64,000 nucleotides of DNA from Escherichia phage Pu-Krd-SF1. Below the pieces are notes generated by a model. That model saw only the letters and a list, made by a program, of their open reading frames with translations, was not told the DNA's origin and searched no databases. Position 1 is the first letter of the stretch. The number at the start of each line of letters is the position of its first letter. Below, piece by piece: positions 28,146 through 32,068 of this stretch. The position numbers and the translations under genes were made by a program. The stretch lies in the sequence record PQ249395. One strand, 5' to 3'.

Positions 28146-28619
28146 ATGTTATTGACTGGCAAATTATATAAAGAAGAAAAACAGAAATTTTATGATGCAC
28201 AAAACGGTAAATGCTTAATTTGCCAACGAGAACTAAATCCTGATGTTCAAGCTAATCACCTTGACCATGACCATGAATTAAATGGACCAAAAGCAGGAAA
28301 GGTACGTGGATTGCTTTGTAATCTCTGTAATGCAGCAGAAGGTCAAATGAAACACAAATTTAATCGTTCTGGCTTAAAGGGACAAGGTGTTGATTATCTT
28401 GAATGGTTAGAAAATTTACTTACTTATTTAAAATCCGATTACACCCAAAATAATATTCACCCTAACTTCGTTGGAGATAAATCAAAGGAATTTTCTCGTT
28501 TAGGAAAAGAGGAAATGATGGCTGAGATGCTTCAAAGAGGATTTGAATATAATGAATCTGACACCAAAACACAGTTAATAGCTTCATTTAAGAAGCAGCT
28601 TAGAAAGAGTTTAAAATGA
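28146..28619 (+). CDS. 49: endonuclease VII (Holliday-junction resolvase)
   Basis: 157 aa, MLLTGKLYKEEKQKFYDAQNGKCLICQRE...HLDHDHELNG matches T4 gp49. Confidence 0.9.
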   Translation: MLLTGKLYKEEKQKFYDAQNGKCLICQRELNPDVQANHLDHDHELNGPKAGKVRGLLCNLCNAAEGQMKHKFNRSGLKGQGVDYLEWLENLLTYLKSDYTQNNIHPNFVGDKSKEFSRLGKEEMMAEMLQRGFEYNESDTKTQLIASFKKQLRKSLK

Positions 28620-29437
28620 ATGTAGTATATAAACTATCATTTATTAGTAGAATTAATGCTAAAACCCCGCCATATTATTATATTGGAAGTAAAACCAATT
28701 GCACTTTTGACGGAACGAATATTATTGATAAAAATGGTAAATTTTATTATTCGTCTTCGTCATCTTCCGAATTTCAAAAAGCCCTGTTGAAAGAAACGCC
28801 GAAAGTTGAAATATTATATTTTCAATTAGTCGGAGATGAACAAATAACTAGCATTGAAGCTGAATTTCAAAAGAATATAGAAAAAGATATATGGAATAAA
28901 GAGTATTTCAATTTAGCATATGCTGACGGTCAATTTACAACGTATGGTATTTCTCCTTCTAAAGAAACTAGAGAAAAGCAATCAATAACCATGATTAAAA
29001 GAAATCGTAATAAAGGTAAAAATCATGGATTTTATGGAAAGCATCATACTAATTTAGCCAGAAAGAAAATATCAGAAGCTTCTAAAAAATACTGGAAAGA
29101 AAATCCACATCGTGGATTTTCGCATACAAAGGAAGCTAAAATTAAAATTGGAATTTCATCTTCTATCAGGCATAAAGGAAGTGGAAATCCGATGTATGGT
29201 GTAAAACCTTGGAAAACTCCGAGAGCAATTAAATCTGGTACTTGTATATTATGGTTAAAATACGCAGAAATTTTATATGATTATTTAAGTCCAGATTTTA
29301 AAAGTAAATCATCTATTTTTGCGGATTTAAACTTACCGAAATTTAGAATTGATAATTTCATCAAAAGGTTTAAAATGGGTTGGAACCCATATTTAGACGA
29401 AGAATTTCAAAAGGATAAATTAGAATTATGTCTTTAG
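28616..29437 (+). CDS. GIY-YIG-like homing endonuclease
   Basis: VYKLSFISRINAKTPPYYYIGSKTN plus repeated NUMOD-like GxxGxYGxxH segments. Confidence 0.6.
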   Translation: MNVVYKLSFISRINAKTPPYYYIGSKTNCTFDGTNIIDKNGKFYYSSSSSSEFQKALLKETPKVEILYFQLVGDEQITSIEAEFQKNIEKDIWNKEYFNLAYADGQFTTYGISPSKETREKQSITMIKRNRNKGKNHGFYGKHHTNLARKKISEASKKYWKENPHRGFSHTKEAKIKIGISSSIRHKGSGNPMYGVKPWKTPRAIKSGTCILWLKYAEILYDYLSPDFKSKSSIFADLNLPKFRIDNFIKRFKMGWNPYLDEEFQKDKLELCL

Positions 29438-31245
29438 AGAAAGATGTTTTAAATTTTATTTCAAATAAAGATAAAGAATTAAATACCGAAAATGCCAACA
29501 AAGATTCTCGTGTCTTTCCAACAAAAAGAGATTTAATGGCTGGTATTGTTTCTAAACATATCGCTTGTAGTATTCTTCCAAGCCATATTGTAAATGCTCA
29601 TAACGTCGGATTAATTCATTTTCATGATTTAGATTACAGTATATCATTGCCTTTTACTAATTGCTGTTTAGTAGATTTAAAAGGAATGCTTGAGAACGGA
29701 TTTAAGCTCGGTAATGCACAGATTGAAACTCCTAAATCAATCGGTGTTGCTACTGCAATTATGGCACAAATTACTGCACAGGTTGCTTCACATCAGTACG
29801 GCGGAACGACTTTTGCTAATGTAGATAAAGTACTTTCTCCTTATGTTAAACGCACCTATGCAAAACATATTGAGGATGCAGAAAAATGGCAAATCGCTGA
29901 TGCGTTGAATTATGCCCAATCTAAAACAGAAAAAGACGTATACGATGCATTCCAAGCTTATGAATATGAAGTAAATACTCTCTTTAGTTCAAACGGACAA
30001 ACGCCTTTTGTGACAATTACATTTGGTACTGGAACTGACTGGACTGAACGAATGATTCAGAAAGCAATTCTGAAAAATCGTATTAAAGGTCTTGGTCGTG
30101 ATGGGATAACTCCTATTTTCCCTAAACTTGTTATGTTCGTTGAAGAAGGTGTTAATCTTTATAAAGACGATCCGAACTATGATATTAAGCAGCTTGCTCT
30201 AGAGTGTGCAAGCAAAAGAATGTATCCTGACATCATTTCGGCTAAGAACAATAAAGCTATCACTGGTTCATCTATTCCTGTTTCTCCAATGGGTTGTCGT
30301 AGTTTCTTGAGTGTATGGAAAGATTCGACTGGTAATGAAATTCTTGATGGACGTAATAATCTTGGTGTTGTAACACTGAATCTTCCTCGCATTGCATTAG
30401 ATTCTTATATTGGAACACAGTTCAATGAACAGAAATTTGCCAAATTGTTCAATGAACGAATGGATTTATGTTTTGAAGCTTTGATGTGTAGAATTAGTTC
30501 CTTAAAAGGAGTTAAAGCTACTGTTGCTCCTATTCTTTACCAAGAAGGTGCATTCGGGGTCCGTCTTAAACCTGATGATGACATAATTGAGTTATTTAAA
30601 AATGGTAGAAGTTCAGTGTCCCTAGGATACATCGGTATTCACGAATTGAATATTCTTGTCGGTCGTGATATTGGACAGGAAATTTTAACTAAAATGAATG
30701 CTCATCTTAAGCAGTGGACTGAAAGAACTGGTTTTGCTTTTAGTTTGTATTCTACACCTGCTGAAAACCTTTGTTATCGCTTCTGTAAACTTGATACTGA
30801 GAAATACGGAAGTGTAAAAGATGTTACTGATAAAGGCTGGTACACTAACAGTTTCCACGTTTCAGTAGAAGAAAATATTACTCCGTTTGAAAAGATTTCT
30901 CGCGAAGCCCCGTATCATTTCATTGCAACAGGCGGTCACATTTCTTATGTTGAACTTCCTGATATGAAAAATAACCTAAAAGGTCTTGAGGCTGTATGGG
31001 ATTATGCTGCACAACATTTAGATTATTTTGGTGTTAACATGCCAGTAGATAAATGTTTTACGTGTGGAAGCACTCATGAAATGACTCCTACTGAAAACGG
31101 ATTTGTTTGTTCTATTTGTGGAGAAACTGATCCTAAAAAGATGAACACAATAAGAAGAACTTGTGGTTATTTGGGAACTCCTAGCGTTGTTCCATGGAAT
31201 TTAGGTAAAATGAAAGAAATGGTAAAACGAGTAAAACATGCATAG
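29428..31245 (+). CDS. nrdD: anaerobic ribonucleoside-triphosphate reductase
   Basis: 605-aa uninterrupted ORF; glycyl-radical motif RRTCGYLG; C-terminal Cys cluster. Confidence 0.9.
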   Translation: MSLEKDVLNFISNKDKELNTENANKDSRVFPTKRDLMAGIVSKHIACSILPSHIVNAHNVGLIHFHDLDYSISLPFTNCCLVDLKGMLENGFKLGNAQIETPKSIGVATAIMAQITAQVASHQYGGTTFANVDKVLSPYVKRTYAKHIEDAEKWQIADALNYAQSKTEKDVYDAFQAYEYEVNTLFSSNGQTPFVTITFGTGTDWTERMIQKAILKNRIKGLGRDGITPIFPKLVMFVEEGVNLYKDDPNYDIKQLALECASKRMYPDIISAKNNKAITGSSIPVSPMGCRSFLSVWKDSTGNEILDGRNNLGVVTLNLPRIALDSYIGTQFNEQKFAKLFNERMDLCFEALMCRISSLKGVKATVAPILYQEGAFGVRLKPDDDIIELFKNGRSSVSLGYIGIHELNILVGRDIGQEILTKMNAHLKQWTERTGFAFSLYSTPAENLCYRFCKLDTEKYGSVKDVTDKGWYTNSFHVSVEENITPFEKISREAPYHFIATGGHISYVELPDMKNNLKGLEAVWDYAAQHLDYFGVNMPVDKCFTCGSTHEMTPTENGFVCSICGETDPKKMNTIRRTCGYLGTPSVVPWNLGKMKEMVKRVKHA

Positions 31246-32068
31246 GTATTATATAATTTATAAAATAACAAATATAATTAATTCAAAGGAATATATCGGT
31301 GCGCATAGCACCGATAACATAAATGACGGTTATATGGGGTCAGGAACACTGATTCGTGCCGCTTTATTAAAATATGGTAGAAAAAATTTTAATAAAGAAA
31401 TTTTACATGTTTTTGATAATGAAAAACAAATGTATGATAAAGAAGCTGAACTTGTAACCGAAGAGTATTGTCTAAAAGAAAATACATATAATATTAAACC
31501 TGGTGGAAAAGGTGGAACTGCCTATGAACAGACACTTGAACATCGCCGCAAAAATAGTTTAGCAAATAAAGGTAAAAAGAGAACAGAAGAAACTAAAATA
31601 GCTATTTCACGTGCTTTAAAGAAATATAAACGTACGCCAGAGCATCAAGCAAATTTAAATAAAGCCGTAAGCATAGCTATGAAGCGAAAAGATGTTAGAA
31701 GTAAATTAGCTGGAGAGCGGTCTGAGAAAGATAAATTATCTATATCAAACGGTGTTAAAAAATATTACAATTCTTTGAGTGAAGAAGAACGCGAACTTCA
31801 TCGCAAGCGAATTATTGAAGGTAAAAAGAATTCTCCCATGTCATTGGAATCTAGACAAAAGCTTTCAAAAGCTTTAAAAGGACTTCAAGTTGGTTCAAAA
31901 AATCCAATGTATGGAAAAATTTCTCCAACTAGCAAAACCGTTTCAGTTGACGGTATTAAATATGATTCAATTAAAAAGTGCTCAAATGCCATAAAAGTTT
32001 CTAGACATCTTATACTAAAACGCTGTAATTCTACTGATGAAGCTTGGAAAAATTGGATATTATTATGA
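31238..32068 (+). CDS. GIY-YIG homing endonuclease (SegB paralog)
   Basis: YIIYKITNIINSKEYIGAHSTDNINDGYMGSGTL parallels SegB; overlaps nrdD stop and nrdG start. Confidence 0.75.
   Translation: MHRYYIIYKITNIINSKEYIGAHSTDNINDGYMGSGTLIRAALLKYGRKNFNKEILHVFDNEKQMYDKEAELVTEEYCLKENTYNIKPGGKGGTAYEQTLEHRRKNSLANKGKKRTEETKIAISRALKKYKRTPEHQANLNKAVSIAMKRKDVRSKLAGERSEKDKLSISNGVKKYYNSLSEEERELHRKRIIEGKKNSPMSLESRQKLSKALKGLQVGSKNPMYGKISPTSKTVSVDGIKYDSIKKCSNAIKVSRHLILKRCNSTDEAWKNWILL

Follow-up and report, generated by a model that had tools for sequence, protein, structure and literature searches.

Two probable homing endonuclease cassettes, segH and a SegG-type gene, flank an intron-less nrdD in Escherichia phage Pu-Krd-SF1

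A stretch of 64,000 nucleotides of Escherichia phage Pu-Krd-SF1 (sequence record PQ249395; hereafter the window), a Tequatrovirus (T4-like phage), carries the anaerobic ribonucleotide reductase gene nrdD between two genes of the GIY-YIG endonuclease type, segH downstream and, upstream, a gene of the SegG family here called HEG1. It is very probable that the two are independent, promoter-less, free-standing homing cassettes flanking an intron-less nrdD, i.e., a case of intron-less homing, an arrangement already proposed in the first-pass annotation and supported here by presence/absence polymorphism, by linkage to diverged nrdD ends and by a cross-genus footprint. That Seg endonucleases home without introns and that mobile elements target ribonucleotide reductase genes is textbook T-even biology, and the locus is a known phenomenon at a known hotspot, with little that is new conceptually. 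Its interest lies in HEG1, a widespread unnamed SegG paralog (48 records in two genera) whose insertion site is new and whose candidate target has been narrowed, and in offering a compact example of several selfish elements partitioning one 1.8-kb gene into linked allelic patches.

Distribution of the cassettes and linkage to nrdD alleles

Between positions 28100 and 32600, a region matched at some level by 983 phage records, the window is 100% identical to Escherichia phages Pu-Krd-SF5, SF6 and SF7. Among near-identical phages the presence of HEG1 varies independently of that of segH: SF4 has HEG1 without segH, PP01 has segH without HEG1, Lv5cm has both together with the nrdD intron, and T4 carries neither, having the intron and mobC instead. 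Over the same interval SF4 differs from the window by a clean 883-bp indel (31182-32064, segH), one mismatch and one gap in 3.6 kb of aligned sequence. A nrdD flanked by both cassettes and lacking the intron was found in SF5/6/7 and OES_C-3, and one with the intron as well in Lv5cm, fPS-2 and F26; such double flanking of an intron-less nrdD is rare, and is not a new kind of system. SF3 and SF4 (HEG1 only, frameshifted) and SF5/6/7 (HEG1 and SegH) form an isogenic natural series for homing and marker exclusion.

Each cassette goes with one particular diverged end of nrdD, to which it is tightly linked. Nucleotides 1-225 are 64% identical between alleles with and without HEG1, as compared to 95-96% in the core of the gene, and nucleotides 1751-1818 are 56-57% identical between alleles with and without SegH, 100% identical among SegH-bearing phages and separated from the core by a sharp break. 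HEG1 was found in 48 records (8 at ≥99%, 40 at 95-99%), the HEG1-type nrdD 5' allele in exactly 48, with the same 8/40 split and a next best match of 76%, while the SegH-type 3' allele occurs in 78 records and segH in 71. T-even genomes are generally mosaic and the divergence of the tracts extends to the protein and not to synonymous sites alone, as would suit diverged nrdD ends that reflect ordinary T-even recombinational mosaicism and stand beside endonuclease genes by coincidence. This we consider very improbable, given the identical record counts of HEG1 and its allele, the lack of intermediate alleles, the uniformity of the SegH tract up to its sharp break, and the recurrence of the same cassette/nrdD association in a second lineage, the metagenomic contig L008 described below.

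The cross-genus footprint emerged from comparison with the Mosigvirus AV109. Gene 49 of the window is 80% identical to its AV109 counterpart (68-84% through the body of the gene), and identity rises to 93-100% from about position 28500, inside the 3' end of gene 49, with 97.3% for HEG1 and 97.8% for nrdD nucleotides 1-225, followed by 87% in the next 200 nt. The pattern is the footprint of the transfer of a block made of HEG1 and the nrdD 5' tract between Tequatrovirus and Mosigvirus.

The HEG1 cassette is inserted exactly at the ATGA junction of gene 49 and nrdD, and SegH replaces mobC between nrdD and nrdG. In the mechanism that we propose, each endonuclease is translated from an existing early/middle polycistronic mRNA via overlapping stop and start codons. 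During mixed infection, the allele of a co-infecting phage that lacks the cassette would be cut by the corresponding enzyme in or beside nrdD. Repair of the double-strand break on the cassette-bearing template would then carry over not only the endonuclease gene but also the stretch of nrdD next to it, about 225 nt at the 5' end for HEG1 and about 68 nt at the 3' end for SegH. The linked diverged tracts would be expected to reduce self-cleavage. We also lean, with more reserve, toward a wider interpretation, in which HEG1 is an endonuclease specific for the nrdD 5' end, nrdD has been hit by three to four independent homing elements that wrote its mosaic sequence, and the genus boundary was crossed recently. 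The 5' end of nrdD would then belong to HEG1, the middle to the I-TevII intron and the 3' end to SegH or mobC; the recent passage of HEG1 between Tequatrovirus and Mosigvirus would have brought a foreign 75-codon NrdD N-terminus, and breaks at nrdD sites may occasionally remove the whole gene, as in phage FL18 (see below).

HEG1, a putative SegG-type endonuclease at a new site

The first-pass annotation had recognized a GIY-YIG-like gene between gene 49 and nrdD, which was confirmed by the GIY-YIG fold of HEG1 and by its homology to SegG at both ends. The protein consists of a nuclease domain (aa 1-105), a NUMOD3 linker (about aa 110-195) and a SegG-like C-terminal tail (aa about 196-273). Over its N-terminal 128 aa it shares 40% identity with T4 SegG (E 9e-27), and its last ~80 aa resemble the SegG C-terminus, with a Smith-Waterman score of 69 vs. 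25.1 ± 4.6 for shuffled sequences (z 9.5), reached by none of 500 shuffles, although this C-terminal similarity was not detected by BLASTP. The two SegG-like regions are separated by a NUMOD3-containing insert of ~70-80 aa that SegG does not have.

The N-terminal domain is common to HEG1 and 20 homologs, and 12 residues are invariant in the family (Y5, R12, P19, Y22, G24, S25, K26, Y44, S47, E81, N99, and A103), all of them present both in HEG1 and in SegG. Profile-profile comparison (hhalign) of HEG1 to canonical GIY-YIG proteins gave a probability of 98.3% (E 2.4e-14), part of this score being contributed by the NUMOD3 linker, and aligned Y22-I-G24, E81 and N99 of HEG1 to Y17-V-G19, E75 and N90 of I-TevI. 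E81 and N99, in the metal-binding Glu and Asn columns, are invariant in 21 family members. Y5 (VVY) is likewise family-invariant and may be equivalent to I-TevI Y6, the spacing between the tyrosines being 17 residues vs. 11. The catalytic domain has the three-stranded sheet and the helices of the GIY-YIG fold. When PDB sequences were searched with HEG1, as a single sequence and as a profile, the catalytic domain matched none of them, the sole match being that of the NUMOD3 linker to the I-TevI DNA-binding domain (1I3J).

T4 SegG (gene 32.1) lies between genes 32 and 59 (Liu et al., 2003, J Mol Biol 334:13, as related in PMC2988022) and is listed as an active GIY-YIG endonuclease targeting gene 32 (Edgell review). 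HEG1 is like it in the nuclease domain, the family-invariant residues, the ~80-aa C-terminal tail and the promoter-less free-standing cassette, and unlike it in locus (49|nrdD vs. 32|59) and in the NUMOD3-containing insert, found in HEG1 only. In all annotated high-identity records shown the gene stands at 49|nrdD and not at 32|59, and because of this site HEG1 is to be regarded as a SegG paralog rather than as SegG. Databases annotate it with the generic "homing endonuclease" and once, wrongly, as SegG, and our literature search found no paper naming or characterizing HEG1 or a 49|nrdD endonuclease. HEG1 is best filed as a new SegG-type GIY-YIG free-standing endonuclease paralog at a new site.

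A relative of HEG1 was observed in an ENA contig (ERZ13617658, L010, positions 3501-4322), encoding a 273-aa protein with a HEG1-like nuclease domain (57% identity) and an unrelated C-terminal half. It sits between the baseplate genes gp5 and 5.1, near the T4 segC locus (5.1|5.3), and suggests domain shuffling within the endonuclease family of HEG1. Since this gp5|5.1 relative shares the nuclease domain and differs in the C-terminal half, the latter appears to track the insertion site.

Evidence against homing and decay of the cassettes

We infer that HEG1 is catalytically active. Several observations nonetheless weigh against the interpretation of the locus as a pair of working homing cassettes. 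No partner for the catalytic Arg27 of I-TevI could be aligned in HEG1 by hhalign, nor could one be in T4 SegG; the invariant R12, in the helix between strands 1 and 2, is our guess for a candidate to this role. The Pfam GIY-YIG models (PF01541 and PF19835) match neither HEG1 nor its true N-terminal homologs, the family being too divergent for the model. Decayed copies exist for both cassettes, namely the frameshifted HEG1 of SF3/SF4 and of L008, the truncated HEG1 of FL18 and the SegH remnant of PD112. The HEG1-linked nrdD tract is only about 68% identical at the amino acid level too, and because its divergence extends to the protein it resembles foreign sequence taken in from elsewhere more than a handful of immunity mutations, so that it does not pinpoint the cut site. 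Lastly, SegH reportedly cuts the DNA of its own phage as well; if so, the SegH-linked tract gives no immunity to SegH.

The unaligned arginine and the lack of a Pfam match, the frameshifted or truncated copies of HEG1, and the six serines that follow its Y-x-x-S motif, where the stretch is usually basic, would be in line with an inactive or decaying remnant, neither cutting nor homing and kept by its embedding in the operon and by the translation start context of nrdD. We judge this quite improbable, since at least 80% of the gene persists in 47 of the 48 records, dN/dS ranges from 0.05 to 0.42 in three pairs (small counts), all the 12 family-invariant residues, common to the active SegG, are retained, and the near identity of the copies from two genera implies that the gene spread recently. 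The SSSSSS stretch was rejected as an inactivating change, the basic position lost in HEG1 being variable across the family.

Some of the decayed copies deserve description. In SF3 and SF4 one extra T in HEG1 (window ~29349; SF4, L001, ~2750; GAATTTGAT vs. GAATTGAT) cuts the open reading frame (ORF) to 245 aa, and may represent decay or a sequencing error. Phage PD112 (MH837626.1/NC_054928.1) has 28% of segH left, in two unannotated pieces, and retains the SegH-type nrdD 3' allele, as would be expected of a decaying copy. In FL18 (Mosigvirus, PP400780.1, L012 1332-2823) gene 49 is followed by a truncated HEG1, segH and nrdG, with nrdD wholly absent. The 1.95-kb deletion (window 29224-31175) leaves HEG1, up to codon ~203, in frame with the last 22 nrdD codons, the join lying in a GGAA(A)ACTCC microhomology and the right end of the deletion coinciding with the start of the SegH-linked nrdD tract. 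Either endonuclease action followed by break repair or an assembly artefact may account for it; if the deletion is real, nrdD is dispensable for this isolate.

Candidate target of HEG1

The position at which HEG1 may cut is suggested by the metagenomic T4-like contig L008 (Logan SRR27536177). Its positions 2188-3180 hold a frameshifted HEG1 homolog (58% identity), which also follows gene 49 and lies between a 55-codon remnant of the nrdD 5' end and a complete nrdD, the remnant ending at nrdD nt 165, where it is fused to the ATGA start of the endonuclease. This duplication of the nrdD 5' end implies an insertion inside it with import of a new 5' end, as would follow from entry of the cassette through a break there, and the locus can be read as the fossil of an insertion event. 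The NrdD N-termini linked to the cassette in the window and L008 lineages have in common PTKRD, GLIHxHDLDY and ELNTEN, at the places where PTQRD, GIIHxHDIDY and DLLNEN stand in cassette-less alleles; the remnant of L008, ending at codon 55, has PTQRD, with ELSTEN at the third motif. In terms of DNA, cassette-linked alleles read ACAAAA(A/C)GAGAT(T/A)TAATGGC and cassette-less ones ACTCA(A/G)CGGGAC... We infer that HEG1-less nrdD would be cut somewhere in its first ~225 nt, and nt ~93-165 of nrdD in cassette-less alleles is our proposal for the target region, which the 5' tract of the window probably contains in a resistant form.

HEG1 might also be active with its cut site outside the nrdD 5' end, either in gene 49 or at a distance as reported for SegG. 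The left edge of the cross-genus block of high identity falls within the 3' end of gene 49, at about 28500, and free-standing endonucleases can cut hundreds of bp away from their own gene (Edgell review). We nevertheless hold such a site to be unlikely, as the 3' end of gene 49 is essentially identical in Tequatrovirus with and without HEG1 and the linked diverged tract lies on the nrdD side only; moreover, the L008 cassette was inserted inside nrdD, at nt 165, and the signature changes in a conserved nrdD motif are common to two lineages. A target in the 5' end of nrdD remains our preferred reading.

SegH and related elements

For the downstream ORF the first-pass annotation was right about a GIY-YIG endonuclease overlapping the nrdD stop and the nrdG start, while its description as a SegB paralog has to be made more precise: the product is identical over 276/276 aa to SegH of phage RB3 (ABI48949.1), and the gene is the known segH. 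At the nucleotide level it is 98.7-99.7% identical to GenBank AY262137-9 (T6, RB3, and LZ2), records annotated as segH. Copies of segH differ at synonymous sites only. In an alignment with I-TevI and canonical GIY-YIG proteins, the invariant Tyr, Tyr-x-Gly, Glu, and Tyr-Asn columns are all conserved in SegH. Loss of the catalytic residues on alignment had been named in advance as counter-evidence; the residues were found for SegH and, as to Tyr/Gly, Glu and Asn, for HEG1, whose canonical Arg alone stayed unaligned. SegH was reportedly named by Sandegren, Nord and Sjoberg in 2005 (NAR 33:6203) in RB3, T6 and LZ2, at this very site, and they are said to have described site-specific endonuclease activity and homing in mixed infection for a protein identical to that of the window. 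Its target is likely nrdD or the nrdD/nrdG junction. From the segH of RB3, T6 and LZ2 (same protein, nrdD|nrdG position, overlaps and linked nrdD 3' end) that of the window shows no detectable difference, except that it additionally co-occurs with HEG1.

The slot between nrdD and nrdG is occupied in T4 by the HNH gene mobC, in whose place the window has segH. Like HEG1 and segH, T4 mobC and the I-TevII intron (at nrdD nt 538) occupy or target nrdD; mobC belongs to another nuclease family (HNH), and both T4 features are absent from the window. SegF, a known case of intron-less homing and marker exclusion (Belle, Landthaler and Shub, 2002, as related in PMC2988022), resembles HEG1 and segH as a free-standing GIY-YIG gene between conserved genes, polymorphic among T-even phages and with a co-converted flank, and differs, in the same account, in protein, locus (soc|56) and target (gene 56).

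Continuity of nrdD

The first-pass annotation had described nrdD as one continuous 605-codon ORF free of the T4 intron, and had suggested alignment to T4 and a search for a cryptic intron as checks; both agreed with it. In T4 and Salmonella phage Lv5cm the nrdD introns are ~1.03 kb long, carry I-TevII and sit after nrdD nt 538, and the nrdD of the window is colinear end to end with both genes, their intron excepted, which places the empty site at 29965|29966. Rfam in permissive mode on short stretches gave only chance matches (E ≥ 0.7) in the nrdD of the window, while the same permissive settings on 1.2 kb of Lv5cm recovered its intron (Intron_gpI, 70.9 bits, E 1e-17). An earlier negative scan of the window was insufficient alone, because Rfam with gathering threshold (score 50) and default filters likewise failed to recover the known intron when run on the 8.5-kb locus of Lv5cm.

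In a patch of ~60-90 nt round the empty site (29938-29997) identity to the intron-bearing T4 and Lv5cm dips to 85-88%, whereas intron-less PP01 stays at 98% identity to the window. This is the third stretch of nrdD that is linked to an element, and the allele of the homing site carried by the window is the intron-less, presumably I-TevII-sensitive one.

Gene layout and expression

On the plus strand the genes are ordered nrdC, 49.x genes, pin, gene 49, HEG1, nrdD, segH and nrdG (Table 1). All coordinates and overlaps given at first pass held on recheck. Gene 49 is the upstream anchor of the HEG1 insertion, its TGA stop being shared with the HEG1 ATG in an ATGA overlap, and the 49|HEG1 junction matches the 49|nrdD junction of T4 and PP01 exactly as far as this ATGA. 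The 3' end of HEG1 overlaps the nrdD ATG by 10 nt, the segH start overlaps the nrdD stop by 8 nt, and nrdG (156 aa, as in T4) begins at its real ATG in a 4-nt ATGA overlap with the segH stop. A TTG at 32044, chosen by the ORF finder as the nrdG start, is unlikely, as the start at 32065 gives a protein of T4 length and is annotated in RB3, PP01 and SF4.

Table 1. Features of the nrdD locus; positions refer to the window unless a contig is named.
Feature	Position	Strand	Remarks
Gene 49 (EndoVII, endonuclease VII)	28146-28619	+	Pfam Endonuclease_7 (E 1e-33) and dimerization domain
HEG1, free-standing SegG-family GIY-YIG homing endonuclease gene	28616-29437	+	273 aa
nrdD, no intron	29428-31245	+	605 codons, mosaic; Pfam NRDD, E 1e-170
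HEG1-linked nrdD 5' tract	29428-29652	+	nrdD nt 1-225; 64% identity to HEG1-less alleles
Candidate HEG1 target patch	about 29520-29542		nrdD nt ~93-115; ACTCAACGGGACCTTATGGC
Empty insertion site of T4-type nrdD group I intron (I-TevII intron)	29965-29966	+	T4 and Lv5cm alignment, Rfam control
SegH-linked nrdD 3' tract	31178-31245	+	last 68 nt; starts directly after glycyl-radical motif codons (RRTCGYLG)
segH, free-standing GIY-YIG homing endonuclease gene	31238-32068	+	276 aa; identity to RB3 SegH
nrdG (activase)	32065-32535	+	Pfam Fer4_12/Radical_SAM; start as annotated in RB3, PP01, and SF4
Lv5cm Intron_gpI match	L003 3331-3566		Rfam permissive mode

Promoter and terminator scans of the locus yielded no dedicated cassette promoter or terminator signal above chance: matches of sigma-70 type numbered 23, with 22.4 expected, and TATAAATA was absent from the locus in the promoter scan. 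Both cassettes start in overlap with the upstream stop (ATGA for 49/HEG1, 8 nt for nrdD/segH), an arrangement that agrees with segC, segF, segG and mobC, described as promoter-less, translationally coupled cassettes. The bases at the site of the extra T of SF3/SF4 form the best sigma-70-like match 5' of nrdD (TTGATA-16-TAAAAT, 10/12), which is not above chance. A terminator-like hairpin was also observed 35 nt into nrdG (32100-32125, plus strand), with 11 pairs, 6 of them G-C, followed by TTTTCGTT. Such matches numbered 4 in the region vs. 2.3 expected, and the hairpin, kept in SF4 and with few base changes in T4 and RB3, may merely mirror conserved coding sequence.

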